Part shown: in pieces, positions 9,188 to 59,830 of the stretch | Numbering within the stretch: position 1 is the stretch's first letter | Layout of the letters: each line of letters opens with the position of its first letter | DNA from: Thermodesulfobacteriota bacterium | GTDB taxonomy: Bacteria; Desulfobacterota_D; UBA1144; Nemesobacterales; UBA2774 | Assembly: GCA_965216785.1 (NCBI GenBank) | Contig: OZ244197.1 | Span: 2,112,001 to 2,176,000, forward strand | DNA: 64,000 nucleotides | Reading direction: 5' to 3' | Notes under the pieces: model-generated | The model's database searches: none | Told to the model about the DNA's origin: nothing | The model's input: the letters and a program-made list of their open reading frames with translations, nothing else | Program-made: the position numbers and the translations under genes

Positions 9188-9374
9188 TTTCTTCTTTTGT
9201 ATGATCACACACGAAGTGTGAATTACTAAAAGATTACAAAAATCACCGCCTTTACATAAATGACGCTAAAATGAATGTAGTTGTATGATCCTTATAATTC
9301 TGCCCACACCCCGTATAAGGTTTTTCACGCCATTCTAATTAACTTTCTTTACGCTATTTATGTATGTCGGAAAC
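9188..9374. repeat. Modular structured interspersed element, copy A
   Basis: Homologous to 28472-28635, 57690-58077, 59552-59830. Confidence 0.88.
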
Positions 9375-9464
9375 TATTCACTCTTCGATAGGCTCAGAGT
9401 GATTGGGGTTTATTAGTGCCAAGTTTGTCGGAGATTGCTTCGCTATGCTCGCAATGACTGCAAT

Positions 9465-9788
9465 TCAGTGTTTTATGACCGAGTCGTCCGGGATGGAGTG
9501 GGGAGATTCTTCCTCGGTCTGGGTGATTTCGATCTCGCCTTTTTCTCTTTCTATAAGCTCGAAGTTCCTGCCGAAGAACCTGTCGGCGAAATATAGTATC
9601 TCCTCTTCCGTCGCGTTGATAATGATCTTCGCCAGCGTTTCGGTCTCTCCGATCTCAAGGGGCTTGATGACGTAGGGGTTCTTTTTGTCCGGGAATACTC
9701 TTGTGATGTAGGAATTGAGCTTTCTCGTGTATTCGAGAAGCTCATCCTTTGGGACTGATATCACGAAGAAATAGTCTTTGGTTTCCAT
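9465..9788 (-). CDS. Hypothetical protein
   Basis: 107-aa ORF with protein-like composition. Confidence 0.6.
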   Translation of the reverse strand: METKDYFFVISVPKDELLEYTRKLNSYITRVFPDKKNPYVIKPLEIGETETLAKIIINATEEEILYFADRFFGRNFELIEREKGEIEITQTEEESPHSIPDDSVIKH

Positions 9789-9928
9789 ATAAACACCCCT
9801 ATATATGATTATACGGAATCCTATGCTATATCAAGAGCTTTTAGCTCGTACAAGAAAAAATTGGAATTATAAAGCCCCTTAGTTAGCTTATACATACTTT
9901 TCTTATGAAGGAGCGAGTATAACGGCTG

Positions 9929-10399
9929 ATGACCAAGCGTGAAGACATAGAGAGAGAATGGCTGGCGCAGCGGGAGAAATGGGGGCTCGAAGACTGGGAG
10001 CTTAAGCTTTCGTACCAGAGGCGTCACCTGGGATACTGCAGGCCCATGAGGAAAACCATATCCGTGTCTTTACGATATATGGAGAGAAACCCCTTTCACA
10101 TAATGAAGGACACGCTGCTGCACGAGATCGCGCACGCGGTGCATTTTCTCGAGACAGGGAAGACGGGCCACGATAACGGATGGAAAGAGGTGGCAACGAG
10201 GGTAGGGTGCGCTCCGCAGAGGTGCGCTTCAGTCAAAGGGCTGATAGTGCCCGAAGGCAAGTACACAGGGGAGTGCCGCTCCTGCGGCAAAACGGTACAG
10301 TTCTATAGAAAAGTCAAAAGGACCTATTCGTGCAGCTCATGCAGCCCGAGGCGCTACGACCCGAAATATAAGCTTCACATTACAGCAAATAACGTTTAG
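9929..10399 (+). CDS. SprT-like zinc metalloprotease with zinc ribbon
   Basis: LLHEIAHA, GH..GWK, C-terminal CxxC/CxxC. Confidence 0.88.
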   Translation: MTKREDIEREWLAQREKWGLEDWELKLSYQRRHLGYCRPMRKTISVSLRYMERNPFHIMKDTLLHEIAHAVHFLETGKTGHDNGWKEVATRVGCAPQRCASVKGLIVPEGKYTGECRSCGKTVQFYRKVKRTYSCSSCSPRRYDPKYKLHITANNV

Positions 10400-10539
10400 C
10401 GTACTTTCCTTTGGGTAATACACACAAAAACTAACCGGCAATAATCGCAATGGTGGTTAGATATGCTAACTAACTTGCTATAATAAATATAGACGGTTAT
10501 AATAAATCCTGCTAAACCATTTCTACAACGGAGTCTCGA

Positions 10540-11145
10540 TTGGCTGAGCGCGGGCCTAAATTTATATTTGAAGGCAACGACGTTTGCCTCGATTTTATAA
10601 ATACCAAGGGAAGAAGTATTGACCTATTGGGGAATTGCGGTGATCTGGCGGATTGGCTGGCCGAAGCGGGCTGTATTGACCCCGGAACGGCGGAGCGGAT
10701 ACTTTCGGTAACTGATAGTGAAGGCGTTGAGATGCTAGAGAAGGTCAGGGAATTCCGTAGTAAGCTAAAGGATGTGGTTCGGGTGATTTCAGAGGGGAAG
10801 CCTTTGCGTCGATCGCTCATCGAGCCAGTCAACGAGATACTGAAGAAAGATAGTGCCTATTCGAACCTGATTCTGATTGACGGGAAACCAAGACTGATCT
10901 CTCATTGCTCATCCGCGATATTAGATCCCCGGCTGCCCATAGCGCAAGCCGCGGCTGAGCTGCTGACAAATAAAGACCACTCGCTTATAAGGAAATGCTC
11001 TAATCCTGAATGTGTTTTATATTTTTATGATGAGAGTAAGAACCACGCCCGCAGGTGGTGCAGTATGCAAAGGTGTGGCAACCGAATGAAAGCGGCCCTT
11101 CATTACAGGAGGAATAAGAGCGGGGGTTCGGCAGGCCCGGTATGA
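10540..11145 (+). CDS. ABATE/CGNR zinc-finger protein
   Basis: CLDFINT; CSNPEC...FYDES....RRWCSMQRCGNRMK. Confidence 0.92.
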   Translation: MAERGPKFIFEGNDVCLDFINTKGRSIDLLGNCGDLADWLAEAGCIDPGTAERILSVTDSEGVEMLEKVREFRSKLKDVVRVISEGKPLRRSLIEPVNEILKKDSAYSNLILIDGKPRLISHCSSAILDPRLPIAQAAAELLTNKDHSLIRKCSNPECVLYFYDESKNHARRWCSMQRCGNRMKAALHYRRNKSGGSAGPV

Positions 11146-11171
11146 ATCTTAAGCTTGGTTTTAACGCTGGC

Positions 11172-12050
11172 TTATGAAATCATTTCAAGCCACTCAGAGA
11201 CGGCGCGGCCAATCTCTTCCGGGCAGTCTTCCTGAATGAAGTGAATGCCAGCAACGGAGACTTCTTTTTGATTTTTCCAGGTGCGTACATAGTCTTTGAG
11301 CTCGCCCCTGAGGAGCGCTCCGGGTTTTGCCTCGATGAAGAGCTTTGGAAGATCGTTTACCGCCATCCAGTCGCTGTACTCCTTTACAATTAAAGCAACA
11401 TCCGCGGGCACACCGTCAAATGGTATCTCGCGCGGCCAGGTGAGAGTGGGGCGGCGGTCCTCTCCGGGAGTCTGGTAAGGGCGGCGGTATACCGCCATTT
11501 CATTATCTGTGAGCTTGCGCATGATGGCCCCCGGCAGTATGTTCTCAATAAAAAAATTATTCTTAAGTATGATCTCTTCGCCCGCGGGGGACCTGAATGC
11601 TTCGAATATGGGGCGCACTTCCTGGGGGAATTGTGACCAGTCCAGCGGCAGAACGAACGCTTCCATATAGGCAATGCCGCGGACCTTGTCCGGACTGCGC
11701 CTGGCCCAGTCAAACCCGAGCGCCGAGCCCCAGTCGTGGATGACGAGAGTGACATTTCTCTCGACCCCCAATGAATCTAGGAAGCCGTCAAGATATTCTC
11801 TGTGCTCCACCAGCCGGTAGCTACCGGGACCGGGATTGTCGAGCTTGTCGGAATCGCCCATGCCAATGAGGTCCGGGGCGATACACCTGCCCTGAGCGCT
11901 TAGGAGCGGCATTACGTTGCGCCAAAGGTATGATGATGTCGGGTTACCGTGCAGAAATACTATAGGGTCTCCTTCCCCCATCTCCACATAGGCCATGGCT
12001 TTCCCTTTGACCTGAACCTTTTTCTTGGGGTGCTCTGTTTCTGAAATCAT
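11172..12050 (-). CDS. dhaA: Haloalkane dehalogenase
   Basis: FLHGNPTSSYLWRN, IHDWGSALG, GIHFIQED. Confidence 0.9.
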   Translation of the reverse strand: MISETEHPKKKVQVKGKAMAYVEMGEGDPIVFLHGNPTSSYLWRNVMPLLSAQGRCIAPDLIGMGDSDKLDNPGPGSYRLVEHREYLDGFLDSLGVERNVTLVIHDWGSALGFDWARRSPDKVRGIAYMEAFVLPLDWSQFPQEVRPIFEAFRSPAGEEIILKNNFFIENILPGAIMRKLTDNEMAVYRRPYQTPGEDRRPTLTWPREIPFDGVPADVALIVKEYSDWMAVNDLPKLFIEAKPGALLRGELKDYVRTWKNQKEVSVAGIHFIQEDCPEEIGRAVSEWLEMIS

Positions 12051-12302
12051 AGTGCTTTTTGCCTCCAGACTGCCTCTCTTTGTGTTTATTGCTGAGATTA
12101 GCCTATAACACGGCGCATATCAATCATAAAATAAGCGACTTAAAGCGGGTTGTTCTGTTAGTATAGATGTTTAATACTAAGTGGGCGATGTAAATTATAT
12201 ACCTTATATTGTGCCCTATATTATTGACTTAAGGCTCTTAAAAGAGTAAAAATTTTATATGGATTCTCTTTTTATAGGTGGTTTTTAGACAGGCCCGGGC
12301 TA

Positions 12303-13097
12303 ATGTATAAAGAACTGAAAAAGAAAGTGCACCAGATTCTCGAGCCGCGTGATAAGGCTCCTTTGGCATCACAGATATTCGTCATATTCATTATGGCTTT
12401 GATTGTGCTCAATGTTATCGCGATTATTCTTGACACCGTCGAGAGCTTTCATTCCGTATACGGTCGTTTTTTCAGAGTGTTTAACTTTTTCTCGGTCATG
12501 GTATTTACGGTCGAGTATTTGCTTCGCGTATGGTCTTGTACCGAGGAAAAAAAGTACAGTAACCCCATTTGGGGGAGACTCCTTTTTATTGTCACCCCGC
12601 TCGCGCTGATTGACCTGATTGCGATACTGCCGTTTTACATACCGATGGTAACCAACGTTGACCTCAGGTTCTTAAGGGCGCTCCGCCTGTTCAGGATATT
12701 CAAGATGACCAGGTATTCCTCGAGGTTCAAGGTATTTATGGACGTCCTGAGGGATAAGAGGGAGGAGATATTAATATCTCTTATGCTCGTGATAGTACTT
12801 CTTATTATCTCGGCGAGCCTTATGTATTACGCGGAAAATAAAGTACAGCCTGAGGAGTTTTCGAACATACCAGAGGCCATGTGGTGGGCTGTGGTCACGC
12901 TTACCACCGTTGGGTACGGTGAAGTGATACCCGCTACCTCATTCGGAAGGGTGCTTGCGGGATGTGTGGCTGTGCTTGGAATATCTCTCTTCGCTATCCC
13001 CGCAGGTATTATCGCTTCAGGGTTTGTAGAGCAGTTTCAGAAAAGGCACAGGAAAAAAGCGGATTACTGCCCGCACTGCGGTAAGCCGATTGAGTAG
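12303..13097 (+). CDS. 6-TM voltage-gated-type potassium channel
   Basis: S4-like RFLRALRLFRIFK; TTVGYG filter. Confidence 0.92.
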   Translation: MYKELKKKVHQILEPRDKAPLASQIFVIFIMALIVLNVIAIILDTVESFHSVYGRFFRVFNFFSVMVFTVEYLLRVWSCTEEKKYSNPIWGRLLFIVTPLALIDLIAILPFYIPMVTNVDLRFLRALRLFRIFKMTRYSSRFKVFMDVLRDKREEILISLMLVIVLLIISASLMYYAENKVQPEEFSNIPEAMWWAVVTLTTVGYGEVIPATSFGRVLAGCVAVLGISLFAIPAGIIASGFVEQFQKRHRKKADYCPHCGKPIE

Positions 13098-13101
13098 ATA
13101 T

Positions 13102-13126
13102 AAAAAAGGGAGCCGAAGCTCCCTTT
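13102..13126. terminator. Bidirectional terminator; same hairpin at 14364-14389
   Basis: AAAAAAGGGAGC-CGAA-GCTCCCTTT. Confidence 0.85.
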
Positions 13127-13163
13127 GATGTATTTGATTTGTACTGTTTAAGTTAGTCTCTGG

Positions 13164-14222
13164 TTAAGCCGTTACCTTTCTTCTTCGGAGAGCTAGTAAT
13201 CCGATTATTCCCAGCACACCTGCCATGGCTATCAGTCCCCATTCCGAGAGGGTAGGTATGGGGTTAGGCTGGAGAAGCTCCAGTGCCAGTCCGTAGGGGT
13301 TGGTCAAGTTGGACAGCTCAACCCGCACATCAGAGCCGTCGAACCTGGCGCTTCGGATCTCCCCGCGCCCGTAATCGGTCCACCAGATTCGCTGACTGAT
13401 CGGGTCGATTTCGATGTCCCAGTAACCGGTGCTGGGATCGTTTATGAGCTGTGTCTCAACGTTGTTCACAATGTCATAGGAGAAGAGCGCCCCCCCTGTT
13501 CCAGGCGACCGGAAATCGTGTGAGGTTAAGAAGATTGTCTGGGTAACCGGATCGAGCGCGTAGCCCCGACCTCGCCCGTCGACGTGGGGTGTCAGCTGAG
13601 TTTGCGCCACCCCGGCGGTGGTCATCCTGTTCACTGACCCGTCCGGGGGAGTTGACATGACGCCGACGTCGCCCCAGTAGATTAAGTTATTTACTAAGTC
13701 GACTGCAATACCCGAGTAAAACCATCCCGGCCCGACGCCATTTCCTGAGAGAAAGATCGTGTAGTTACCGCCGGTATAATCCACGACGGAAACCTCGCGG
13801 CCATCGTAGCTTACCGCCCTTGTGAAGTAGATGAGTTGATTGGCCTGATCCAACGCTAGCTGGTGCACCGCGTCCCCCGTATTAAATACGGTCGCAAGAC
13901 CGGTCCCGTCACTGTTAACCTGATTTATCGAGCCACCACCCCCAACGCGAATGGGCCCCCAGTCGGCGAAATACAGAATGCCCGTGTTAGTGTCAAGATC
14001 GACGTCCTGGAGACGTGAAAAGTTTTGCGCCAGAACCTGGGTCGCACCGTTGCGCAGATTGGTTACCGAAAGCGTAGCGTTGTCCCGGTCGGTCCAGAAG
14101 ACCCTCTTTACGGCTGCCGTTGCACTCTGGGTCGCCAGCAAGGTTCCCGCAAGCACAGCGATAACAACTAGCAGTTTACAGATAACCTTATAACCAGGTA
14201 TTTTGCTCAGCTTATTTGCCAT
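13164..14222 (-). CDS. IPTL-CTERM surface protein with YWTD-like beta-propeller
   Basis: FWTD/YFAD/YWGD/WWTD repeats; IPTLSEWGLI..TM..RRRK tail. Confidence 0.85.
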   Translation of the reverse strand: MANKLSKIPGYKVICKLLVVIAVLAGTLLATQSATAAVKRVFWTDRDNATLSVTNLRNGATQVLAQNFSRLQDVDLDTNTGILYFADWGPIRVGGGGSINQVNSDGTGLATVFNTGDAVHQLALDQANQLIYFTRAVSYDGREVSVVDYTGGNYTIFLSGNGVGPGWFYSGIAVDLVNNLIYWGDVGVMSTPPDGSVNRMTTAGVAQTQLTPHVDGRGRGYALDPVTQTIFLTSHDFRSPGTGGALFSYDIVNNVETQLINDPSTGYWDIEIDPISQRIWWTDYGRGEIRSARFDGSDVRVELSNLTNPYGLALELLQPNPIPTLSEWGLIAMAGVLGIIGLLALRRRKVTA

Positions 14223-14412
14223 CTGCTCTGTCCTCCTAAATAAGAAATTGTGGGTCTTATTATACTATAAGTAGAAAGAAACTAATAGTTGTACGCTATT
14301 GTTGTCCTGTACCCCTTTTGTCAAGCTCGGGTTAAGTTGGAGTTATTAATAGTAAATCCAAGCAAAAAAGGGAGCCGAAGCTCCCTTTTAGGTTATTTTT
14401 AATGCTTGTAAG

Positions 14413-15477: not shown

Positions 15478-15593
15478 CTGTGCTATCCTCCTTAAGGAAT
15501 GAATGCTTAACAAAATCTTACTATACATTAATCATTATTAATAGGGATTAGAGGAATTTCAAGTATATATAGTTCACCCTTATGACAGGCTCA

Positions 15594-16286
15594 GGGTGAG
15601 CGGGTTAAAATAACGCAAAGATTGTTTGAGGTTGCTTCGCTTTGCTCGCAATGACGGTAATAAAAAGCTCAAAAGCCGGGCAGGTGTTAACCGCTCGGCT
15701 TTTGAGTTAGAGGAGGATGGATGATTGGCGTATTTATTTACTTTCAACGCGCTCTCACTCATTAAGACTGAGGAGCCGAGTTGTTAAGCTTCTGCACGAC
15801 AAAAGAGTCAGCAGCGCTTGATGCCACGTGTCCGCCCTTACTGTCTTTATCTGAGCTAAGGGTCTGGATTACAAGCGTGTCGCTTGCTCCGGTGGCTACG
15901 TAGCCGCCTCTGATATTGTCGCTAACTTCGTTTGATTCTACCGGAACACTTACACCAAAAGCGTTAATCTCTGCCTGTGAAGCAACCGGAAAACTAAGAC
16001 CTACTGCTAAGATTGATGCTAAAAGTAACTTTGTCATTTTACTGCCTCCTTAACTGTGTTTGTCTAGTTAGTTGCAACTGCAACGAGAAAGGATTCAAAA
16101 ATTGTACGGGGATTTTGGAAATAATGGCTAATAATGTTGTAAGTGCCTCTAAATACAGAGGTATTATTTTTTTGGGGAAAGAAAAAAGATTTGGATTCCC
16201 GATTAAGACTTTCGGGAATGACCATATTATCTCCCCCACCTCAATCCTCCCCCGTCAAGGGGGAGGAAGCTAGTGTATCACCCTTC
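15594..16286. repeat. ~700 bp segmental duplication, copy 2
   Basis: Matches 3746-4447. Confidence 0.95.
15762..16037 (-). CDS. Small secreted protein (near-identical to 3924-4199)
   Basis: Same length; differences confined to the first internal repeat and linker. Confidence 0.85.
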   Translation of the reverse strand: MTKLLLASILAVGLSFPVASQAEINAFGVSVPVESNEVSDNIRGGYVATGASDTLVIQTLSSDKDSKGGHVASSAADSFVVQKLNNSAPQS

Positions 16287-17336: not shown

Positions 17337-17532
17337 ACTAAGTTTCTTTAAGCTCCACTCTTAACGGCCTTATCGTAGCACAATATTAGAGGAAATTAAA
17401 CCTGCGGGGCCGTTTTCGCGCCCAGGTACTACTCAAGTAATTCTACATCCGGTTCTGTATCCGTGGGTCCTCTAATTGCCCAAAGTGCCGGGCTTTACGA
17501 ACCCTTAATGATATTTCGGGTATCATTCGGGT

Positions 17533-19137: not shown

Positions 19138-19208
19138 CGCGCGGCTCTATCGCGCCGTGGTATTATAAATAAACCGGAGTGAGCCGGAATAAATTTCAGG
19201 GGGATAAT

Positions 19209-27302: not shown

Positions 27303-27401
27303 TTATGAATTGCCAACGGGGCAGAGGCAAGCGTTTTACAGCGATGCCCGCAGGTATAAATACTTAATTCCCCGTAAAAAACAGCAGGAGGTAACAGCTT
27401 T

Positions 27402-28471: not shown

Positions 28472-28635
28472 CTCTTCTTTTGAGTGATCAAAAGAAGCAA
28501 AAATCACCGTCTAGGCAGAAATGACGCTAAAAATTAATTATTCTGGCTAAACCTTATAATTCCACCCCATCCCGTATAAGGTTTTTAACGCCATCCTAAT
28601 TAATTTTCTAAACGCTATTTCTGCATGCCGGAAAC
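28472..28635. repeat. Modular structured interspersed element, copy B (minimal form)
   Basis: Homology to copies A, C, D. Confidence 0.85.
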
Positions 28636-28671
28636 AAGTCACCCTTCGCAGAGCTTCGGGTGATTAAGATA

Positions 28672-36519: not shown

Positions 36520-36632
36520 TTTTGATTAATTCCCCCGGATCGTGCTTCGCACTCCCGTCCGTCCCCACTGCCTCTGTCTCCTGATTTTATACCTGCCCCG
36601 GCATCGCTGTGAAGCGCTCGCCTCTGTCCCCA
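36520..36632 (-). repeat. GGGGAC..GA/GAT hairpin repeat units downstream of the 36633 gene
   Basis: Reverse complement matches the arrays at 49444 and 52797. Confidence 0.85.
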
Positions 36633-36941
36633 TTAAGGCTCGTCGCGGAACATGTAGGGGGTTTTGCCGGTGGTGCATTCCTCAAAGAATTTAATAATGT
36701 TCTTTTCATACAGGTGCAGAAACCTCGTCAGTATCTCGAAGCGTCTCGCGGTAAGCTTGGTTTTGCAGAGCACTTCGAGCTCGCCCCCGTTCTTGACCTC
36801 TCCGTAAAGCTCGGCCAAAGCCTCGCCGGGCTCCATCCTGTGGCTCACATGGAACCAGCAGTTGATGTCGCCGTTTATTATGACATTTATATCGTCTATG
36901 ACGAGTATAATCTCACCAAGCGTAATTGAGTTGTTTTCCAT
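36633..36941 (-). CDS. Hypothetical protein
   Basis: ORF from MENNS; protein-like composition. Confidence 0.6.
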   Translation of the reverse strand: MENNSITLGEIILVIDDINVIINGDINCWFHVSHRMEPGEALAELYGEVKNGGELEVLCKTKLTARRFEILTRFLHLYEKNIIKFFEECTTGKTPYMFRDEP

Positions 36942-49440: not shown

Positions 49441-49443
49441 GTG

Positions 49444-49640
49444 GGGGCAAAGGCGAGCGCAGTACAGCGATGCCGGGGAGTTAATCAAAAATGGGGACGG
49501 AGGCGAGCGTTTTAGTGCGATGCCGGGGAGTTAATCAAAAATGGGGACAGAGGCGAGCGTTTTAGTGCGATGCCGGGGAGTTAATCAAAAATGGGGACAG
49601 AGGCGAGCGTTTTAGTGCGATGCCGGGGTATTAATCAGAA
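49444..49640 (+). repeat. Four 50-bp tandem hairpin units
   Basis: AGGCGAGCG at 49451, 49501, 49551, 49601. Confidence 0.95.
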
Positions 49641-49657
49641 GCGGGAAAGGGATAAAA

Positions 49658-50749
49658 ATGGGACGATTGAGACAGAAACAGGAGATCTGGGGCGAAGTGC
49701 TGACTGACAAGGGATATATGAGAGTGCCGAGGGCGCTGAGGCTCAAAAGGGCCGAGCTTGGGATAAGCAATAATGAATATGCAATATTGCTTGACTATCT
49801 GGACTATTACACTTACTGCGGCGGCCAAAACCCCTACGGGCACCTGGCTCAGGTGAACGGGGTGAGCGAGAGGACTGTGCAGAATACGCTCGGCAAGCTG
49901 GCGCAGAAAGGGCTGATCGGGAGGATCGTGAAAAAACACCCCAGCGGAAGGACCAAGGGGGTCGTTTTCACTATTGAGCCGCTGCTCATAAAGCTTAAGG
50001 GTAGGGTGAAAGATCTTTCACCTACAGAGGGTGAAAAAAACTTCACCTACGAGGGGGAAGAAACCTTCACCCCTAATACTAGAGAAGTAGGTAACAAGAG
50101 TAGAGATAGTAAAAAAAGCTCTCCCGAAGCCCTGCCTGCGGGAGAAGCTGCGGCTAAGCATTCTTATTCGAATGATACTTTAGGGAACTCACTCAGAGAA
50201 ACGAGAGAGCTATATGCCTTGTCGGACGCTGAGACTGGTCCTGAAAACCAAAAGGCCCGGGGACGTAAGAGGAAGAGTAATTCAAAAGACCCTTACAACT
50301 CGACCAGGTGGTACAACGAAGTGTTTTCGGAGATTTACAAAGAGGCTTCGGGGCAGCCCGTGCTGACGGGGGGAAGGGAGTACGGGGCGGCCAGGACCTA
50401 CTTTTCAAGGCTAAGGGAGCTGAACCCTTTGCTCGGCGCAGAGGAGATATACGAGCGGGCAAGTGACGGGGCGCGCTTTATGCTCGAGTCGCAGCTAAGG
50501 GGAGGGGTGTTCGGGTGGATGCACTGCCCGCCCGACATATGCATGCTGTCGGGTCAGGCTCAGGCCGTTGACTATCATTTGAGGAAAACGGTTATAGCGG
50601 GCACGGCAGAGCAGAAAGACTCAAAACCAAAGCAAGTGAAAATTTCCGGAGCCAGAGAGCTCGGGGAAAAGGAGGCTTATTATGCGTCAGAAGAGATCAC
50701 AAGAATTTACGGGGAGCTCAAGGGGCTTCGGGGAGCCAAGGGGCAGTGA
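49658..50749 (+). CDS. Phage-type replication initiator with DnaD-like N-terminal wHTH
   Basis: GY..VP..L....ELG.S..E..ILL..LA...GVSERTVQ..L..L..KGLI.R..F.IEPL..KL; internal iterons. Confidence 0.7.
   Translation: MGRLRQKQEIWGEVLTDKGYMRVPRALRLKRAELGISNNEYAILLDYLDYYTYCGGQNPYGHLAQVNGVSERTVQNTLGKLAQKGLIGRIVKKHPSGRTKGVVFTIEPLLIKLKGRVKDLSPTEGEKNFTYEGEETFTPNTREVGNKSRDSKKSSPEALPAGEAAAKHSYSNDTLGNSLRETRELYALSDAETGPENQKARGRKRKSNSKDPYNSTRWYNEVFSEIYKEASGQPVLTGGREYGAARTYFSRLRELNPLLGAEEIYERASDGARFMLESQLRGGVFGWMHCPPDICMLSGQAQAVDYHLRKTVIAGTAEQKDSKPKQVKISGARELGEKEAYYASEEITRIYGELKGLRGAKGQ
50005..50071. repeat. Three palindromic iterons GG(T/G)GAA-N6-TTCACC (putative ori)
   Basis: Units at 50005, 50030, 50054 followed by an A-rich tract. 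Confidence 0.7.
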
Positions 50750-51560
50750 GCGGCAGGTGTCGGAGTTTTTAAGGCGCGGGCAGCGGGCGTACCCGGAGAT
50801 ACGGCGCCGCGATAAAAGGCTTTTGGAAGAGGCGCTTGATTTTCTCTTGAGCGCCGAGGGAATAAATGACCCCGAGGGGACGCTTAAGTCGCTCTTTCAT
50901 GTGTATGAGGAGATAGACCCGTACGCGGATTATATAAAGCCCGGAGAGAGGGAGTTTTTCCCGGCACATAAGCGCGAGCGGACGCTCGAGCGGTTCCTGG
51001 AGGGATTTAAGTACATTTACTACATCCTGCTCAGGGCCCAGGAGAGGCTTTATCTCGCCAATACGTTTGGAGTGTTCTGGGAGCGCTGCGCCGAGTATCT
51101 TCAAAAGTGCGGTTACAAGAACAAGTATATAGATGGCGTATGTGGTAAGGATTCTCTATTTTACAGGCAGAGCTTTAATTACTGGCGGAGTGAGTTTAAG
51201 GACGAAGAAGAGGGGTTTTTGGTGATGTTCGCCTACTTTAAGGCTTGTTTCGGGATAGAGGGGAACGACGTTTACTGCTCGGTCGCGAACAGCCGAGAGA
51301 CTACGTATGACTGGAGGCGTATGAAGGCTTGTTTTGAGAAGCTACGGGACTCTGCAGTAAAAGAGACTGTAGTGCCAGCGCCAAAGTACGAAGAGTGGTC
51401 TGAGAAAAACAAAAGGATGATCCGGCAGAGGATAGAGGCCTACAAGAGGGAGCGCAGCGAGGAGATAAGAAAATCTGAGCAGGTGCTTGAAAATATCAGG
51501 ATACGAAACGAGAAAGAGGGGCATGGGCAGTTTGCGGCGGCAGGCAGCGCACATGGTTAG
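50682..51560 (+). CDS. Hypothetical protein in the helicase-loader position
   Basis: GGAGG RBS, overlaps the initiator end; no Walker motif seen. Confidence 0.7.
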   Translation: MRQKRSQEFTGSSRGFGEPRGSERQVSEFLRRGQRAYPEIRRRDKRLLEEALDFLLSAEGINDPEGTLKSLFHVYEEIDPYADYIKPGEREFFPAHKRERTLERFLEGFKYIYYILLRAQERLYLANTFGVFWERCAEYLQKCGYKNKYIDGVCGKDSLFYRQSFNYWRSEFKDEEEGFLVMFAYFKACFGIEGNDVYCSVANSRETTYDWRRMKACFEKLRDSAVKETVVPAPKYEEWSEKNKRMIRQRIEAYKRERSEEIRKSEQVLENIRIRNEKEGHGQFAAAGSAHG

Positions 51561-51771
51561 AGAGATTTTCGGGGTTTCGGAGCGTATAATATGCAGCGGT
51601 AACGGGGAGTTGCGGCTATTTTTGAAAATAATAGGTTAATTGTGAAAAGTTCGGGTATAATATTATATTAGCAGTTACTGTATCCGAATTGTCCTGAGAA
51701 TAGAAAAGGGCGGCTCGGCTGACAAGTTGTTAAGCTGAAGTCAGGATATGAAGCCAAGGTAAGGTAAAAAC

Positions 51772-52041
51772 ATGAGAGCAAACTATTATCACGAGCGTCT
51801 GGGTATTACATTTCGTATCATAGGTCTTCTTTTTGAGGACGAGAGGTACGAAATCTATCATGCCCGGAACAAAAAGTATGACCGGGACCTGATTCTCCAC
51901 TTTCCTAAGACCGGAGAAGGCCGGAAGTACAACGTCCCTAAGGTGAACTTCGAGAGGCTTGCAGCCGGGACGACGAGCAAGCCGCCAAAAGAAGTCAATC
52001 TGCCGTGGGATAACAAGTCCGAGAGGGCTAAAGGGCACTAA
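51772..52041 (+). CDS. Hypothetical protein
   Basis: AAGGT RBS, 89 aa. Confidence 0.6.
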   Translation: MRANYYHERLGITFRIIGLLFEDERYEIYHARNKKYDRDLILHFPKTGEGRKYNVPKVNFERLAAGTTSKPPKEVNLPWDNKSERAKGH

Positions 52042-52538
52042 GCACGCACGGGGATAGAGGCGGTCCTTTGACTGCACGCTCACCCTGATCGGGGGATTTC
52101 TGCGATGCGGGAGAAGGGATAAAGTCAGGGGCTAAGGCAAACCCTGTCGATTGCATCCGCTTGTGCCTGACCACAAATAAACTTGTTTCTGTAGAGTGAA
52201 TGAAGGGGTGTTTTTTATCCTAGCCGGGAGGGCTTTGCTTTTTCAGCCTGAAGACCGCGGGACCGGGAGCATATAAGCCCGGGGGCTGTAGCCGCTGCGG
52301 GGAGGGGAAAGCGCCCGGGATCGGGAGTTCTTATTTGGGTATGTTCAGAATGGTACTCCAAGGCGGAGCTGCGTCCGATCTTCCCGATGGCATGAAGCAG
52401 GTGGAAGCATACGGTAGAGCAAAGGTGTGAAGTATTTGTCGTTTTGGAGTACAGATAGGCGCTGTAACAGTTGATGTAGGAGTCGAGTCGAACGAGGGCC
52501 GGTTGTTTTAGGGTAAGCACTTATTGAAGGAGGGGATT

Positions 52539-53459
52539 ATGACTTATGACTTCGAGTCTCTCAGCTGTCCGATGTGCGGCGGGGAGCTTATATATTCTGA
52601 GGGTACGCACGACCTTTGCTGCGCAAAGAACAAGTACGAGCTTTCGAGTATGGAAATGGGCAGGGGCGGCCCTTCGACTGCGCACTGTGTGCGCGCTCAG
52701 GGTGAGCGGGGGATTTCTGCGATGCCGGGGAGGGAAAGAAGGAAGGATGAGATCCCGGATCGAGTCCGGGATGACAAAGAAGAGAGGGATAAATTTGGGG
52801 ACAGAGGCGAGCGCAGTGCAGCGATGCCCGCAGGAATAAAATCAGGGGACAGAGGCGAGCGTTTTAGTGCGATGCCTGCAGGTATAAAATCAGGGGACGG
52901 AGGCGAGCGCAGTGCAGCGATGCCGGGGAATGAATTAAACAAAATCGGCAGAGCGCTTCATGAGCCCGGGGCAGGATACGGGAGCGCGGGAAGTAATGGT
53001 GAGACACAGGGTGAATCGAGCGCCCCAAATTCCGGGTCTACACAAGAGACGCATGTTGGAATGAGTAGGCCGCATGCGAGCAAAAGTGATTTGAATAAAT
53101 CGAGTGGATGCTTATTCGCCGTCTCTTTTACCGAGAGCGGGAGGCACGGGACCCTGTGGAGCATCAGGACTGTGCACGGGGGCACGAATTATTTTTCGCT
53201 CATGAGACTAATGGACAAGATTGAGAAGCGCCAGAGGAGGGGCGAGCCTCTTGCCGCGAACGTCCCCAACCTGCCCAGGAAGGTGGAGCGCTCTAAAGAG
53301 TGTAAGCTGGCCTTCCGCTACAGCCTCGAGGTCGAGGACCTGTATTCAATTAAATACAGCTCGGAGACAGTGGACAAGCTGGCCATGTACTACGGGCTGA
53401 CTGAGCCCGACATCAGGCACATTCAGGCCGCGGAGATCGGGGGAGATCAGGGGACATGA
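52539..53459 (+). CDS. Hypothetical protein: CxxC N-terminus, repeat-derived linker, C-terminal domain (may be two genes, second from 53061)
   Basis: AGGAGG RBS; CPMCGG; in-frame repeats. Confidence 0.5.
   Translation: MTYDFESLSCPMCGGELIYSEGTHDLCCAKNKYELSSMEMGRGGPSTAHCVRAQGERGISAMPGRERRKDEIPDRVRDDKEERDKFGDRGERSAAMPAGIKSGDRGERFSAMPAGIKSGDGGERSAAMPGNELNKIGRALHEPGAGYGSAGSNGETQGESSAPNSGSTQETHVGMSRPHASKSDLNKSSGCLFAVSFTESGRHGTLWSIRTVHGGTNYFSLMRLMDKIEKRQRRGEPLAANVPNLPRKVERSKECKLAFRYSLEVEDLYSIKYSSETVDKLAMYYGLTEPDIRHIQAAEIGGDQGT
52749..52775. repeat. REP-like GAGATCCCG..CGGGATGAC; copies at 55772-55799, 56256-56304, 57589-57615, 58111-58138
   Basis: Recurrent hairpin with GATGAC end. Confidence 0.8.
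52797..52928 (+). repeat. Three 48-bp tandem hairpin units
   Basis: GGGGAC at 52797, 52845, 52893; same core as the 50-bp array. Confidence 0.93.
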
Positions 53460-53599
53460 AGCAAAAGAGAGCGTGGGCGGATACCATCTGCTTAGAGTGC
53501 AAATAGAGCGGTTATTCAGGGTGATTAGTAGTCATGAATTGTATGGATAAAGCCCGTGGATATGTCATAATACTTATATAAACAAACGAGTGAGGAGAC

Positions 53600-54187
53600 G
53601 TGATGAAGAGAACCTACACCTTATATATAGCGGCGGTAATGATGACACTCAGCATATTCTCGTTTGGTTGTAATAAGCAGGGCTCGGATCCTGTTTCGGA
53701 GTCCGCGGCGGATCAGCTGGCTAAAGGGCAGGCGCTTGTGGAGGAGTGGAAATGCAATTACTGCCATTCACCGGAGGTTATGGGTCCTGAGGGTAAGGCA
53801 ATCCCCGATCCGGACAGGCTGCTTTCGGGACATCCGGCGGACGAGGAGATCCCGGAAATACCCGATATGATTATGACATCGCCCGAGTACATGGAGTTTT
53901 TGGACAACCTTGACTCTACAGTGTGGGCGACCGACAACAAGATTGTGTTCACGGCCAACCTGACTCCGGACGACGAGACGGGGATCGGCGCCTGGACTGA
54001 GGAAATGTTCATTGCCACCATACGCTCGGGCCAGCACCGGGGGGTGGGCAAGAGGCTCAAGTACCCGATGCCGTGGCAGGAGCTCGCGGAGCTTGACGAC
54101 GCGGAGCTTGCGGCCATATACGTATACCTACAGAGCGTTGAGCCTGTAAGTAATAAAGTCCCTGAGTCGATAGTTCTTTTTAAGTAA
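53600..54187 (+). CDS. c-type cytochrome lipoprotein
   Basis: Lipobox SFGC; CNYCH; ANLTPD.ETGIG.W; PMPW. Confidence 0.9.
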   Translation: MMKRTYTLYIAAVMMTLSIFSFGCNKQGSDPVSESAADQLAKGQALVEEWKCNYCHSPEVMGPEGKAIPDPDRLLSGHPADEEIPEIPDMIMTSPEYMEFLDNLDSTVWATDNKIVFTANLTPDDETGIGAWTEEMFIATIRSGQHRGVGKRLKYPMPWQELAELDDAELAAIYVYLQSVEPVSNKVPESIVLFK

Positions 54188-54330
54188 CGCGGTGAAATCC
54201 GGAATGGGCGGAGTATAGACTTTTACGGCTTCGGGACACCGGAAAGTATTTCCGTAGAGAAAAATGAGTGTTGCAAATTTTTAATAATTACAGTACATTT
54301 GTGTTAATAGTTAATGCAAGGAGTGTGCAT

Positions 54331-55086
54331 ATGAAGATGAGCGGTTATAAGCCATCTCTTTTAAGCGCAGTTTTAATTATCGCGGTTTTACTTGTATTGC
54401 CGTTGACCCCGGCTTTCGCACAGGTTGACTTTACCCCGAGCGAGGGGGAGTTTGTTCTGGCAAATCCACAGGTTCTGGAGCAGAATTTTCAGTCGGGCAA
54501 TGTGGCTCCGGGGGAGCTTGAGAGCTGTGACTCGCCAGTGAACCTTGACTCGGACGGTGATTGCTTTAACCCGGGAGATATATTCCCCGGTATTCAGTTT
54601 GACTCTATTCCCCCGGGAGATATGAACCTCGCGGGCAGTTTCTGGAGCGCGAACCAAAACCCTATGAACGCTCTTACGCCGGACGGCTCCACTCAGTCTA
54701 TGGAGATCACTTTCCCGGATAACGCTATAAACGCCGCCGGGCTTACCTTGGGCTGCCTGGATGACAATGGCGGTTGTATTGGCGACCTGGTGGGTGTTGA
54801 CGTATTCGGGGCGGGCGGCGAGCTATTGGGCTCGACTCAAGCTTTTGTATCGAGTCAGTTTAATACGTTTGTAGGAATTACGTCCGTGGAGATTATAGAA
54901 AGAATAGTGATTAGCGACGCAAACCCGCAGACAGTGAGCTTTAGAGGACTGAGCAGAGTGCTGTACCCGCTGCAGGATGAAGTTGATATTCCGACTCTGA
55001 GCGAGTGGGGGCTGATTGCGACAGTGCTGGGGCTGGGAATTATAGGGCTCTTTGCTATACGCAGAAGGGCTGCTGCCAGAACATAA
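54331..55086 (+). CDS. IPTL-CTERM protein
   Basis: Signal peptide; IPTLSEWG tail. Confidence 0.85.
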   Translation: MKMSGYKPSLLSAVLIIAVLLVLPLTPAFAQVDFTPSEGEFVLANPQVLEQNFQSGNVAPGELESCDSPVNLDSDGDCFNPGDIFPGIQFDSIPPGDMNLAGSFWSANQNPMNALTPDGSTQSMEITFPDNAINAAGLTLGCLDDNGGCIGDLVGVDVFGAGGELLGSTQAFVSSQFNTFVGITSVEIIERIVISDANPQTVSFRGLSRVLYPLQDEVDIPTLSEWGLIATVLGLGIIGLFAIRRRAAART

Positions 55087-55208
55087 GATAAGAATAGCAA
55101 GATAGTATATACCTAATATAGAATATTAACAGAGCCTCTTCCCCCACTACCGGGGAAGGGGCTTTTTTGTGTATAATGTGCGTAGTAAAATGAATGAAGG
55201 AGCACGGT

Positions 55209-55742
55209 ATGAAAAAATTCATCACATTTTCAATAGTAACGATGTTTCTGATAGCCTCGCCGCTTGGCGCGGTGGCCGCATTTGCCCAGGAGGCTGAGGT
55301 AGCTGAAGAAACAGAGGCCGCGGCGGACCCCGAAAAGGAAGCGGTCAATAAAGCGCTGGGCCAGTTCTATATGGCGCTAAACCAGTTGTTCAAAGGCGAC
55401 GTGGAGCCGATGAAAAAGGTGTGGTCACACGCAGAGGACGTAACGTATATGCCTCCTGACGGCACATATCTCATAGGCTGGGACGAGACTATTAAGTCGT
55501 GGCAAGAGCAGGCGGCAATGAAGCTTGGCGGAGTGATAAGGCCTGTAGAGCTCAATTACCAGATTGGTGACACGATTGCGGTCGTGCAAAATTACGAGGT
55601 CGGAGAGAATTTTGCAAATGGCGAACGGGATACTGTGAAAATACGGGCTACCAATGTATTCAGGAAGGAAGACGGCCAGTGGAAGATGGTATCGCACCAT
55701 ACGGACGTGCTGCCGTTTTTAGAAAAGGAAGAGAAAAAGTAG
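55209..55742 (+). CDS. Secreted SnoaL/NTF2-like protein
   Basis: Signal peptide; FY.ALN, IRATNVFRKEDG.WKM..HH. Confidence 0.88.
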   Translation: MKKFITFSIVTMFLIASPLGAVAAFAQEAEVAEETEAAADPEKEAVNKALGQFYMALNQLFKGDVEPMKKVWSHAEDVTYMPPDGTYLIGWDETIKSWQEQAAMKLGGVIRPVELNYQIGDTIAVVQNYEVGENFANGERDTVKIRATNVFRKEDGQWKMVSHHTDVLPFLEKEEKK

Positions 55743-55819
55743 GGGCTTTATCTATAAGCAGGGTAAAAGATGAGGGCCCGGACCACGCTCCGGGATGACA
55801 AAAATGCGGGAGGGAGATT

Positions 55820-56221
55820 ATGGATATAAAGGAAGCGGTAGAAGAGTATTTCAGGGCGCTTAACGCAATGTTCGCGGGAGACGCTGAGCATATTAAGCAC
55901 CTGTGGTCGCACAGCGCCGACGCGGTATTCTATGGTCCTGACGCCAGCACGCTTACCGGTTGGGAAGCTGTGGAGACGCTCATCGATCAGCACGCGGCGA
56001 TGAACATCGGGGGGTTTGTAGAGCCTTCCGGCATTCACTACGTCGAAGGCGGCGAGCTGACGGTAGTTTATAGCAATGTGAAGGGCCATCATCATATTGG
56101 CGGTAAGCAGCAGCCCGTGGACATCCGCGCTTCCATGGTGTTCCGCGAGGAAAGCGGGGAGTGGAAGGTGGTTGCTCTACAGACGGACATACTGCCGTTT
56201 ATTTTGCCGCTGGGTGATTAG
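55820..56221 (+). CDS. SnoaL/NTF2-like protein
   Basis: Paralogue of both neighbours. Confidence 0.85.
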   Translation: MDIKEAVEEYFRALNAMFAGDAEHIKHLWSHSADAVFYGPDASTLTGWEAVETLIDQHAAMNIGGFVEPSGIHYVEGGELTVVYSNVKGHHHIGGKQQPVDIRASMVFREESGEWKVVALQTDILPFILPLGD

Positions 56222-56439
56222 GCGTATCTGAGATAAAAAAGTATAAGAAACAGATGAGATCCTGAATAGATCCGGATCAAGCCCGGGACATGGTTCAGGA
56301 TGACCACCCTTCGCTTCCGACTTCGCAAATGCATCGTCGAGACAAGAAAGCTTCGGGTGGCAAGCAATAAGGTATCACACCCATCCTAACCTTCCCCCCT
56401 CAAGGGGGAAGGAATTGAAGATTGAAAAGGAGAAGCGAA

Positions 56440-56832
56440 ATGCATATAAATGAAGCGATAGATCAGTTTTACGGGGCTTTGAACGCACTGATCGGGGGAA
56501 ACATAGAGCCGATGAAGGAGATATGGCTGCATGAGGATTACGTTACGTACCTTGACCCCACGGGGGCATATCTTGTCGGCTGGGACAAGGTGCTCGAGAG
56601 CTGGCAGAAGCAGGCGGACATGCACATAGACGGGGACGTGCACCATGAGAAGCTGCAGGTGATGGTGGAGGGGACCATGGCGGTCGCTCACAACTACGAG
56701 ATCGGGAATACGGAGATAGAAGGGAAGCGGGAGCATGTGTTCATACGCGCCACGAACGTGTTCCTTAAAAAAGACGGCAAATGGAAAATGATCTCACACC
56801 ACGTTGACCATATGAAGATGCTTGGGGGGTAG
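56440..56832 (+). CDS. SnoaL/NTF2-like protein
   Basis: IRATNVF.K.DGKWKMISHH. Confidence 0.88.
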   Translation: MHINEAIDQFYGALNALIGGNIEPMKEIWLHEDYVTYLDPTGAYLVGWDKVLESWQKQADMHIDGDVHHEKLQVMVEGTMAVAHNYEIGNTEIEGKREHVFIRATNVFLKKDGKWKMISHHVDHMKMLGG

Positions 56833-56860
56833 GGGGGGTGCATTAACGTGATGCAAATTC

Positions 56861-57637
56861 TCAATGCCCGCTGTAGCGGCTTTTTTGGGCGGCGGGGATT
56901 GGGGTAACGGGTTTGCAGGTGCGTGCTTCATCGACGGTTCTTTTCATGGTTTCGAGGTTTACCTGGGCTTTTTGGTAGTAAATCGGCAATAGGCCTTCGG
57001 ATTCCCACTTCTCAGCTTCTTCGCAGGGTATGCTCTTCTTAGTCCTTTTCCCGCCTTTTAATACCTTATTGTAATAGAGTACGTCGTTTTCGATCTTCGG
57101 GTCATCGTACCAGTCAAAGAACGACAGGCTTTTGGTCGGGAGGTCAATTATCAAAACCCGCTTGTGGTCACGCCCCGTCCACTGGTCCAGGAAAAGCTGC
57201 TCGCCCAAAAGTCCCACGAACTGGTTGGCTCCCCCGAACTCGCCGGCTTTGATGAAGTAGTAAGCTCTTTTCAGATTTAGATTGCAAGGGTCTTGCACTT
57301 CTTCGGTCTTGAAAATGTAGGTGTTCTGGCCTTCAAAGTCCTTGGACCTGACGGAATATATAGTATAGAAGTCATATACATATGCCTTACCGCTCTCACA
57401 GGTCTTTACCTCCGCAGTTTCAGTGCCGGGAATCAGGGGTACTACCTGCTTGTACTGCTGCTCGTAGGAGAGTGCGGAGGCTGTGGTGAGAAATAAGAAT
57501 GTAAGGAAAATTGATAATGTTATTAAATCCCCCCCCACCTTTAATCCTCCCCCCGCGGGGGGGAGGAGATTAGAAAAAGACAAAAAATGAGATCCCGAAA
57601 CAAGTTCAGGATGACAAGATAAGGATAGTTTTTTCAT
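56861..57637 (-). CDS. Secreted hypothetical protein with REP-like DNA in its N-terminus (paralogue of 58813)
   Basis: Shared PLIPGT, GGAN.F.GL....LF.DQ.TG motifs. Confidence 0.75.
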   Translation of the reverse strand: MKKLSLSCHPELVSGSHFLSFSNLLPPAGGGLKVGGDLITLSIFLTFLFLTTASALSYEQQYKQVVPLIPGTETAEVKTCESGKAYVYDFYTIYSVRSKDFEGQNTYIFKTEEVQDPCNLNLKRAYYFIKAGEFGGANQFVGLLGEQLFLDQWTGRDHKRVLIIDLPTKSLSFFDWYDDPKIENDVLYYNKVLKGGKRTKKSIPCEEAEKWESEGLLPIYYQKAQVNLETMKRTVDEARTCKPVTPIPAAQKSRYSGH

Positions 57638-57689
57638 GAGGGAAAAGGATACCCGGCTTCGTAATACTTCGCCTGGCGTAGCAAGATTA

Positions 57690-58077
57690 TTTCTTCTTTT
57701 GCATGATCACACACGAAGTGTGAATTACTAAAAGATTGCAAAAATCATCGCCTGGACACTCACAAAGTGAGTTTTTACAAATGTGACCTAAGGACTTAGT
57801 AAATTTCTGGCTGCGCGGTATATTGTAGAAACCGTTTGTCAGCACGCACAGCGTGTACGCTAAAAATGAATTCTGTAAGCTAAACCTCCACAATTCCGCC
57901 CACACCCCGTGTGAGGTTTTTAACGCGGACACAGAGTGTCCAATCATACGGTTTCTACATGGCTTATGAGTTAGGGTAAGCAGATAAAGTTCTCATGAAC
58001 CTCATGAGGAATGTAGAAACATTATGTCTGCGGGCACTGCCCGCATTTTCTTAACGCTATTTATGTATGTCGGAAGC
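57690..58077. repeat. Modular structured interspersed element, copy C (longest)
   Basis: Core plus three inserted hairpin modules. Confidence 0.85.
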
Positions 58078-58259
58078 TTAAAAGCAAAGACAACGGCAAA
58101 AGAAAATGATGAGATCCCGGATCGGTGTCCGGGATAACAATGTAATGGCTCTATTTTCATTCCGAAAAAAATACCAGAGTTTCCGGTCTTGCAATGTAAG
58201 GGCAATTGTTATTAGAATTGAGGGTATAGTATTGATAATCCAGTCAGCAGGAGGGTGTT

Positions 58260-58781
58260 ATGAGCTTAAGAAAATTACTATTGATGTTACCGTTGCTGCT
58301 GTTTCTTGGGACCACAGCGTGCGATAACGACAACAGCAGTAACGCGCAGGATATGGAGCCTGACCCGGCGCCTGTGCAAGCCAAGACCACTGTAACGGGC
58401 AAGGTGATCCCGCCCGGAAGCGATAGCTGCAATGGAATGTTTCCAGGGTTTATGGACGGGGACGATGTGGAAATCGATGTCAATTCTAACGGAGGACCGT
58501 CCGGAACCGCGACTATTATGGTTAATCAGGGGACAGACGGGATGATAGCGTGCTCGGCTGACGGCGCGGGGCTAGAGATTGTGGATTCGCCGCCAATATC
58601 TAATATTATTTGTGAGGTAATGTCGGTATCGAGCGAGTTTACGGGAGTCAGCAATGGAGACCTGCTTCAATTTGCGGTCTTCTTTTCAGGTGAATCGCCC
58701 GTACAGAAGCAGGCGGTTGTAATTGTCATGGATCAATGCGCTGTTATAGGAATCGAAAACCTTAACGCGAACTCTTCTTAG
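58260..58781 (+). CDS. Lipoprotein
   Basis: AGGAGG RBS; lipobox TTAC. Confidence 0.75.
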   Translation: MSLRKLLLMLPLLLFLGTTACDNDNSSNAQDMEPDPAPVQAKTTVTGKVIPPGSDSCNGMFPGFMDGDDVEIDVNSNGGPSGTATIMVNQGTDGMIACSADGAGLEIVDSPPISNIICEVMSVSSEFTGVSNGDLLQFAVFFSGESPVQKQAVVIVMDQCAVIGIENLNANSS

Positions 58782-58812
58782 AAAACTGGTCAACGAAGAT
58801 TTCTAATATGGA

Positions 58813-59463
58813 TTACTGGCCCGGTCTGCAGCGGTATTTGTCGAGCGCTTCTTTTTTCCCGGTCTCAAGGTTGTAGGCAGTCTGTCGTTGGTAGTGTGTT
58901 CTTAGTCCCTGCATAGCCCAGTCGCCTAGCAGGATGCATTGGTTCCCGGCGTTATAGAACTCACGGGGGTGGACGGTCTCAAAATAGGTGAGGGTACCGT
59001 CAGAGAGCACAGGGTCTGTGTAGTTGGTGAAATACTGCAGTTTTCCACTCTTAAGATCGTATATGGAAAGTCCCCTGTAGGTAGGGCCCGTGCCCTGGTC
59101 GATGAACAGGTAGTCAACGTACAGCCCGGCGAAGAAGTTGGCTCCGCCCAATACGTCGTTGTCGTACGTGTAGAGGGGCTCTCGCGCGGCTGTCTTGCAC
59201 AGCCTGCCGTCTTTCTTGTCCGTATGGTAAACGTTAATGTTCTCCCCGGACAGCTGCTTTGTAGGAATCGTATATATTGTATATTCTTTATATCTATATA
59301 CTGTGCCGTTACCGCACTTTTTGACATGGGGCGTGTCAGTGCCGGGTATGAGCGGGATTAGCTGCGCCGCGTCCTCGGGAAGCTCTGGGTCGGCAGAGCG
59401 GGCGGTGAGCGGGATAATGAATAGTAGTGCAATGACTAGGGTTATATGGGTTATCGTGTTCAT
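58813..59463 (-). CDS. Secreted hypothetical protein
   Basis: Signal peptide; paralogue of 56861. Confidence 0.8.
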   Translation of the reverse strand: MNTITHITLVIALLFIIPLTARSADPELPEDAAQLIPLIPGTDTPHVKKCGNGTVYRYKEYTIYTIPTKQLSGENINVYHTDKKDGRLCKTAAREPLYTYDNDVLGGANFFAGLYVDYLFIDQGTGPTYRGLSIYDLKSGKLQYFTNYTDPVLSDGTLTYFETVHPREFYNAGNQCILLGDWAMQGLRTHYQRQTAYNLETGKKEALDKYRCRPGQ

Positions 59464-59551
59464 TTAAAAAAGGATACGTACAGAGGGGGTAGAATCAAGA
59501 ATCATTTAATGTTTGCACATTATCTTTTAACGATACTCAAATATACAACTT

Positions 59552-59830
59552 TTTCTTCTTTTGAGTGATCACACACGAAGTGTGACTTACTAAAAGATTG
59601 CAAAAATCACCGACTGGACACTCACAAAGTGAGTTTTTAGAAATGTACCTAAATAACGGGGCTAATTTCGGACAGCATAACGTTATGTAGAAATCGAATG
59701 TCTGCACGCACAGCGTGTACGCTAAAAGTTAATTATTCTGGCGGAACCTTATAATTCCTCCCCACCCGGTATAAGGTTCTTAACGCCATTCTAATTAACC
59801 TTCTTAACGCTATTTATGTATGTCGGAAAC
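59552..59830. repeat. Modular structured interspersed element, copy D
   Basis: Core plus two inserted modules. Confidence 0.88.

Follow-up and report, generated by a model that had tools for sequence, protein, structure and literature searches.

An undescribed family of modular, non-autonomous palindromic repeats in Candidatus Dadabacteria and its orientation relative to replication

What is a folded sequence devoid of open reading frame (ORF) that recurs four times in the same orientation between the genes of a bacterial chromosome: a selfish DNA, a regulatory RNA or a functional site of the chromosome? The question is raised by a window of 64,000 nucleotides (positions 2,112,001 to 2,176,000 of contig OZ244197.1) from a member of the phylum Candidatus Dadabacteria (genome G000), which carries copies A to D of such an element (Table 1). 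A first-pass annotation of the window had proposed either a non-autonomous mobile element folding as single-stranded DNA or RNA or an unlisted structured non-coding RNA. The element belongs to a real, undescribed family of non-autonomous palindromic repeats; no description of this family was found in the published literature, subscription papers and bioRxiv supplements being outside the coverage of the search. On balance, we lean away from a regulatory RNA and towards a selfish non-autonomous DNA whose spread would be coupled to the replication fork.

The four co-oriented copies were recovered with 80-92% identity to each other (E-values down to 1e-51). On the minus strand of the window, the element starts with an invariant CCGACAT, followed by a hairpin of about 125 nt that holds two nested asymmetric motifs, CGTNAA on the 5' arm opposite TTAG on the 3' arm (found in 107 and 114 of 128 copies). 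These bulged motifs are separated by variable stems, the apex of the hairpin is G-rich, and a TGAYTTTTG linker then leads to a 9-bp hairpin. The bulged motifs and both ends of the element are conserved while the stems in between turn over. The minimal copy, B, consists of just this long hairpin, with its two nested motifs and its G-rich apical loop, and of the short 3' hairpin. Its annotated stems all lie where they had been placed (CTTCTTTTGA at 28474 with TCAAAAGAAG at 28488; GCAGAAAT at 28515 with ATTTCTGC at 28617; AAAATTAATTA at 28530 with TAATTAATTTT at 28597; AACCTTATA at 28550 with TATAAGGTT at 28575), and the compensatory variants noticed in copy A (TACATAAAT at 9253 with ATTTATGTA at 9356) and in copy C (TGTGAGGTT at 57910) are present. 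The element was also rightly described as lacking terminal inverted repeats: the only candidate, the 5-bp CCGAC/GTCGG, closes the long hairpin, and about 35 conserved bases extend beyond it.

The fold is maintained by compensatory change. Compared with dinucleotide shuffles, the folding z-score reaches -5.9 for copy B (0/200 shuffles as low) and -5.0 for copy C folded as DNA (0/100); it is -3.5 to -4.1 for copy D and weaker, -1.8 to -2.2, for copy A (40 shuffles each). Across all runs, B, C and D range from -3.2 to -6.9 and A stays at about -2. In an alignment of 44 copies built from sequence only, both partners vary in 32 of the 43 pairs, pairing holds in 90.5% of the cells (a value reached by 0/500 shuffles) and the score is 0.40 versus 0.06-0.10 for slid partners, controls that overstate significance since the structure was derived from the same sequences and the copies are related. 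An alignment of 127 distinct copies fitted to the covariance model gives both-side changes in 26 of 32 pairs. These alignment-based counts replace an anchored regular-expression count of the middle stem, which caught only 14 sequences and was dropped. The structured, covarying and ORF-less nature of the element, as initially described, is borne out.

The mismatches tolerated in the stems are asymmetric: G.T exceeds A.C (55 versus 21) and G.A exceeds T.C (68 versus 16), the purine-rich side being the minus strand of the window. By this criterion, the strand predicted to fold, be it as RNA or as DNA, is the minus strand. The mean DNA folding energies of the two strands are -29.0 and -26.8 kcal/mol, a gap of about 2 kcal/mol, and the predicted RNA fold is lower on the minus-strand side in 126 of 127 copies. 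Together with the strong covariation, the G.U-rich mismatches on one strand and the two CGTNAA-type internal loops of 107/128 copies, this would suit an element acting as RNA, be it a structured non-coding RNA in dispersed copies or a small retro-mobile RNA whose copying would rely on a reverse transcriptase (RT) provided in trans. However, tolerance of G.T and G.A also suits single-stranded DNA, and a search against Rfam 15 gave no match at the gathering threshold in the window (best E-values, at the level of chance, 0.79 around B and 2.2 around C and D). We consider an RNA role quite unlikely, and several of the results below bear on it as well.

The longer copies differ from copy B by three modules. 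As initially noticed, a cGAAg hairpin (M3) is carried by A, C and D but not by B, a module of about 100 bp (M2) by C and D, and one of about 120 bp (M1, first put at about 115 bp) by C only. In G000, M1 (120 nt), M2 (about 92-100 nt) and M3 (22 nt) are found only within the element, M1 being confined to the interior of four copies. Their combinations do not fit the stepwise growth by nested insertion that had been suggested, since the modules assort independently and substitute for stem arms: all three are present in C and in two further copies, M2 and M3 in D, M1 and M3 in a copy at 2,247 kb, and M3 alone in A. Moreover, M2 is identical between D and a copy at 2,772 kb, the rest of these two copies differing. 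The module pattern is one of mosaic exchange rather than of serial growth. M1 and M2 replace stem arms instead of being seated in loops, so that the long copy C no longer folds into the core; such broken core stems argue against an RNA role. In other genera, the inserts sit in the apical loop and one of them includes a captured gene fragment. A piece of about 600 bp with an AbiEii gene fragment (Pfam E-value 9e-8) was found inside one copy (L035:17100-17591, G022:C5), the corresponding site of G013 being empty.

Full copies number 16 on the G000 chromosome (3.12 Mb, one contig), alongside one or two fragments; 11 of the copies lie within 2.08-2.25 Mb. By BLAST, 25 of 41 genomes contain the element. 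Of 120 genomes of the phylum, 42 score with a covariance model trained on 44 diverse copies, namely G000, 28 of the 32 other genomes of its family (f1), and some genomes of five other families. Copy number per genome ranges from 0 to over 60, and one relative harbours about 60 copies in 160 kb, all co-oriented. When named genomes were scanned for the pattern, eight stretches came from beyond the phylum, none of which scored with the covariance model. A second scan yielded 131 metagenome loci, all of which scored with the profile. Plasmid and phage collections gave no match, and four loci of viral contigs carry the element, every one in a cluster resembling gene transfer agents (GTA).

Comparison of orthologous sites reveals that copies are gained and lost, as checked between G000 and G001/G002 and between G013 and G096/G022, and this presence or absence, together with the conserved fold and the lack of an Rfam match, makes non-autonomous mobile DNA, one of the two options of the first-pass annotation, the best reading. 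Several sites are empty in G000 relative to G001/G002, and some carry the short form in one genome and the long form in the other. In G013, G096 and G022, gene order is syntenic and the intergenic gaps differ by the gain or loss of entire trains of hairpin repeats. No target-site duplication was detected (57 copies, 3-5-mers at every offset, with an excess over shuffled pairs of 2.2 at best), which also speaks against a retro-mobile RNA. Four DNA runs analysed over positions 50000-64000 of the window revealed no clean excision, all joints being accounted for by other copies. Copies are homogenised at the level of lineages: across genera, identity between those in orthologous phage-gene gaps is 57-79%, against 73-97% to the best genome-mate, and in a tree of 117 of the 192 copies, from which copies past seven per genome were left out unless at a marked site, grouping is mostly by lineage. 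The flanks of one copy of G001 (L079) and one of G002 (L084) map far apart in G000, the breakpoints of these rearrangements coinciding with element sites.

The four copies of the window had been placed upstream of minus-strand genes for secreted proteins. The distances hold (123, 70, 52 and 88 bp to the next minus-strand start, the second becoming 160 bp with the likelier ATG), and, on inspection, the N-termini of the four downstream ORFs are hydrophobic, none of these ORFs matching Pfam, but no general link exists. All four orientation classes relative to neighbouring genes occur among the 198 copies with two neighbours (43, 49, 39 and 67). The 118 proteins encoded next to metagenome copies are a mixed assortment, and neighbours recurring in at least three genomes are phage structural genes and ordinary genes. 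By our own reading, 5 of the 16 copies of G000 face a gene end and 11 precede a co-oriented start. The pattern upstream of secreted-protein genes is local chance, and this lack of relation to flanking transcription is a further argument against an RNA role.

By contrast with this indifference to genes, the element follows local GC skew: the C-rich strand carries 194 of 201 copies overall, and 189 of 191 in family f1, in counts made on segments chosen for their richness in elements and on clustered copies that are not independent. In G000, this is true of 15 of 16 copies. As the folding strand itself is G-rich, its placement on the C-rich strand does not result from compositional drift. With the G-rich strand taken as the leading one, the folding strand lies on the leading-strand template, off the exposed template. 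Neighbouring repeats of repetitive extragenic palindromic (REP) type share this polarity in element-rich segments (99:3, 71:2, 33:3 and 32:0). These orientation data weigh against a non-coding RNA. They could result from insertion in either orientation followed by deletion of, or selection against, copies that put the stronger-folding strand on the single-stranded lagging template: the folding strand is indeed kept off that template, and several unrelated hairpin repeats show the same polarity. However, a strand difference of about 2 kcal/mol seems small for a 189:2 bias, and copies of recent expansion (96-97% identical) already share a single orientation, so that such purging appears unlikely.

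Spread coupled to the fork would instead fix orientation at insertion. At the fork, the exposed template would receive, by annealing or joining, the folding strand in the form of a single-stranded copy with the polarity of the nascent lagging strand; an enzyme acting in trans would bind to the bulged motifs. Annealing of such a copy to elements already in place could likewise homogenise them and exchange their modules, and fold-back copying from arm to arm might account for compensatory changes in blocks as well as for the mini-hairpins that border the modules.

Several observations weigh against fork-coupled spread, beyond the choice of segments already mentioned. Outside family f1, only 5 of 10 copies lie on the C-rich strand; the four copies of G036 (family f7), in segments of weakly negative skew, do not clearly follow the strand rule; and some cGAAg mini-hairpins read on the opposite strand. 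Empty sites differ by entire repeat trains, and no clean insertion junction was found among them. Positions shared across genera (the phage gaps and the dapA-rnhB gap) could mean functional selection. Lastly, none of the enzyme families searched was found at the element ends, HNH, IS91/Y2, TnpB and serine recombinases being outside the search. The Y1 transposase (PF01797) occurs in only 5 of 32 genomes of the family and not in G000, IS110 (PF01548) in 6 of 33, without element in those six loci, and DUF559 (PF04480) in 17 of 33 without tracking the element. The RT (PF00078) occurs in 8 of 33 and is absent from G000, G013, G005, G007, G022 and G004, which counts against a retro-mobile RNA too.

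Y1 and GIY-YIG (PF01541) were both searched in 120 genomes. None of 12 Y1 loci has an element beside it, and GIY-YIG is too widespread to discriminate, in a search that missed G000 altogether and is insensitive there. The linked HUH or GIY-YIG nuclease envisaged initially was thus looked for and not found. Among 74 loci around such genes and terminase genes tested with the model, copies occur in four terminase loci and one DUF559 locus only, and a scan of 118 of 128 proteins neighbouring metagenome copies found no nuclease and no transposase.

The long co-oriented arrays, with a spacing of 0.3-10 kb, the single-strand hairpin with extrahelical bases and variable apex, and the joint absence of copy B and two genes from G002 recall the attC sites of gene-cassette arrays. 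Yet the integron integrase (TIGR02249) exceeds the cut-off in none of five element-rich relatives (G000 having been searched with PF00589 only), genes between copies point in both directions, gene order is syntenic among G013, G096 and G022, and RYYYAAC/GTTRRRY ends are missing. An attC-like function is therefore highly improbable, and a superintegron is rejected on the integrase search, the synteny and the indifferent gene orientation.

The copies behave as oriented with replication and are concentrated around an apparent fork-meeting point other than dif. Neutral GC skew peaks, then flips or collapses, at 2,232.4 kb in G000:C1, 2,254.7 kb in G005:C1, 658 kb in G007:C15 and 60 kb in G013:C10. 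The dif site lies at 2,551 kb in G000 and 333 kb in G007; in G005, where dif is at 2,033 kb, sampled skew becomes positive past dnaA (994 kb) and changes to negative near 2,260 kb. In the three genomes having both on one contig, the switch is 318, 222 and 325 kb from dif, and the polarity of FtsK-orienting polar sequences (KOPS), like dif, lies 220-325 kb beyond the switch. The switch is no more than about 10 kb away from where a GTA-like phage cluster ends in four of five genomes. This cluster encodes terminase, portal, scaffold, capsid, tail and endolysin (PHROGs) and ends near the same extracytoplasmic function (ECF) sigma gene in five genera (21 kb off in G021). A location of the cluster at dif is excluded by the distance of 220-325 kb. 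No integrase or replication gene was found among 34 proteins of the cluster scanned. Its capsid is 89-92% identical across four genera, and an in-frame TGA in the terminase gene is common to three g3 genomes. G005 (C1 2,274-2,301 kb; L205, L209) shows an arrangement resembling polymorphic toxin-immunity arrays: six or more long ORFs begin alike, two of them matching the tape-measure-like gene of G007, and are interleaved with small antisense genes that open with a CxxC motif.

The repeats could be functional chromosome sites, opposed arrays acting as a polar fork trap or as signals for GTA-like particles, which would shift the meeting point of forks away from dif. Element orientation does flip across the neutral-skew switch in G000 and G005, the switch adjoins the cluster end as described, the same phage gaps are occupied across genera, and in the element-free G008 the skew changes sign at 470-540 kb, near dif (471 kb), in a coarse sample of 20 kb every 90 kb that limits this comparison. 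Nevertheless, opposed arrays are expected from any replication-oriented repeat, neither a flip in the 120 kb examined nor a skew switch at the cluster end was seen in G021, and copy number varies from 0 to over 60. In addition, the capsid gene is present in 9 of 120 genomes, that is in 9 of the 32 of the family and in none of four other element-bearing families, and the cluster gaps of G100 are filled with other repeats without the element, indicating that the GTA-like cluster is not required. A functional site of this kind thus seems rather improbable. A wider scheme, in which the repeats and a domesticated GTA-like cluster would form a new terminus system of Dadabacteria, with opposed hairpin arrays as polar barriers or particle marks, forks meeting at the cluster end 230-330 kb from dif and hairpins renewed by fork-coupled copying, is more doubtful still and is offered as a conjecture. 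In the searches run, no published account was found of a neutral-skew switch that lies away from dif and holds a fixed place where a conserved GTA-like cluster ends.

Table 1. Coordinates of the element copies, their modules, adjoining repeats and GTA-like loci (window positions unless a genome is named)
Feature	Position	Strand	Description
Copy A	9188..9373	-	Core and small 3' hairpin module; 97 bits with covariance model; right arm of middle stem a poorly pairing variant
Copy B	28472..28634	-	Minimal form, 163 nt; 175 bits with covariance model
Copy C	57690..58077	-	Core and all three modules (M1, M2, M3)
Copy D	59552..59830	-	Core, M2 and M3; orthologous site of G002 has a different internal form
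Module M1 in C	57926..58045	-	120 nt; hairpin between two mini-hairpins with three-base loops; takes the place of the 5' arm of the middle stem
Module M2 in C	57756..57856	-	Bracketed by two mini-hairpins, also with three-base loops; partly replaces the outer stem's 3' arm
Module M2 in D	59618..59718	-	90/90 bases shared with the module of the 2,772-kb copy of G000; 73% identical to that of C
Module M3 mini-hairpin	9205..9221 (A); 57707-57723; 59569-59585		cGAAg on plus strand
Separate short palindromic repeat	9376..9403		Adjoins 5' end of copy A; a relative adjoins copy B (28638-28664); direct sequence reading
Separate tagged REP-like hairpin	9431..9458	-	Same orientation as element; another type at 58111-58139
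GTA-like cluster loci	L028-L030 (G021:C1 239-272 kb); L110, L205, L206, L208, L209 (G005); L031 (G007); L097 (G000:C1 2,229-2,233 kb)		

The window has other features besides the element. Positions 3746-4447 and 15594-16286 are a 700-bp duplication (88% identical) with a 91-aa secreted-looking ORF, of which 8789-9064 is a diverged third homolog. Another family, of intergenic tandem repeats of about 50 bp, occupies 49442-49640, 52796-52939, 36570-36634 and 27318-27360. Short palindromic repeats (57516-57615) lie in frame within the 5' part of the ORF 56861-57637 and are absent from its G002 ortholog. The protein encoded at 6562-8598 combines a bacterial thaumatin domain (Pfam E-value 2.7e-21) with a sorting-like tail at its C-terminus; several IPTL-CTERM proteins are encoded nearby, and G002 lacks two of the latter as well as copy B.

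How does the element compare with known repeats? In its working it comes closest to bcr1, BOX and the mosaic CGTC-repeat regions of Neisseria. It does not belong among MITEs (miniature inverted-repeat transposable elements), REPs, REPs with their associated tyrosine transposases (REP/RAYT), attC sites, IS110 elements or Rfam families. The derivatives of IS200/IS605 and the REP/RAYT systems also rely on single-strand hairpins with conserved unpaired bases and an orientation tied to replication, whereas here the Y1 transposase is missing from G000 and from 27 of the 32 family genomes. The BOX elements of Streptococcus pneumoniae have a modular boxA/B/C build, their length varying through tandem boxB units; in the present element, unrelated modules substitute for stem arms, and no candidate insertion sequence partner was found. 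The bcr1 repeat of the Bacillus cereus group reportedly has a fixed orientation to replication too.

Published descriptions allow further comparisons. BOX is likewise non-autonomous, structured and variable in length (67-637 bp) (PMC3184786). bcr1 is about 155 bp long, ORF-less and intergenic, with about a dozen full copies per genome and a mobiliser that is unknown; its two stem-loops are kept by compensatory change, it is described as cruciform, its positions are not conserved and it is flanked by 5-bp TTTAT direct repeats (PMC3184786, PMC6199540, PMC3446304). The element resembles it in size, compensatory structure and non-conserved position, and differs by the absence of TTTAT repeats at its ends and by its architecture, one long bulged hairpin and a short one with swappable modules of 22-120 nt. 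ERIC, RUP and Correia MITEs are of similar size and form long imperfect palindromes (PMC3184786), while the element has neither terminal inverted repeats nor a duplication, of TA or otherwise. Like the CGTC-tagged REPs and the Neisseria mosaics, it occurs in mosaic intergenic trains of tagged short palindromes without dedicated transposase, and its 5' GACAT resembles the GTCAT tag; however, it is five to ten times as long as a REP, and CGTC REPs are mostly head-head dimers (PMC3733652, PMC3184786) while the present trains run head-to-tail on one strand. With a minimum of 163 nt and a CCGACAT start, it departs from the tagged hairpin of 20-40 bp that defines GTAG and CGTC REPs, a type which the neighbouring repeats do resemble. 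The BRE repeat of Bordetella is not co-oriented with replication (PMC3110155).

The element stands as a well-described new repeat family of an uncultured phylum. How CGTC repeats spread without a dedicated transposase is stated as an open question (PMC3733652). For REP-like and bcr1-like repeats, the present family offers clues to this spread: a near-absolute polarity common to unrelated repeats, a folding strand, two bulged motifs and a visible exchange of modules.

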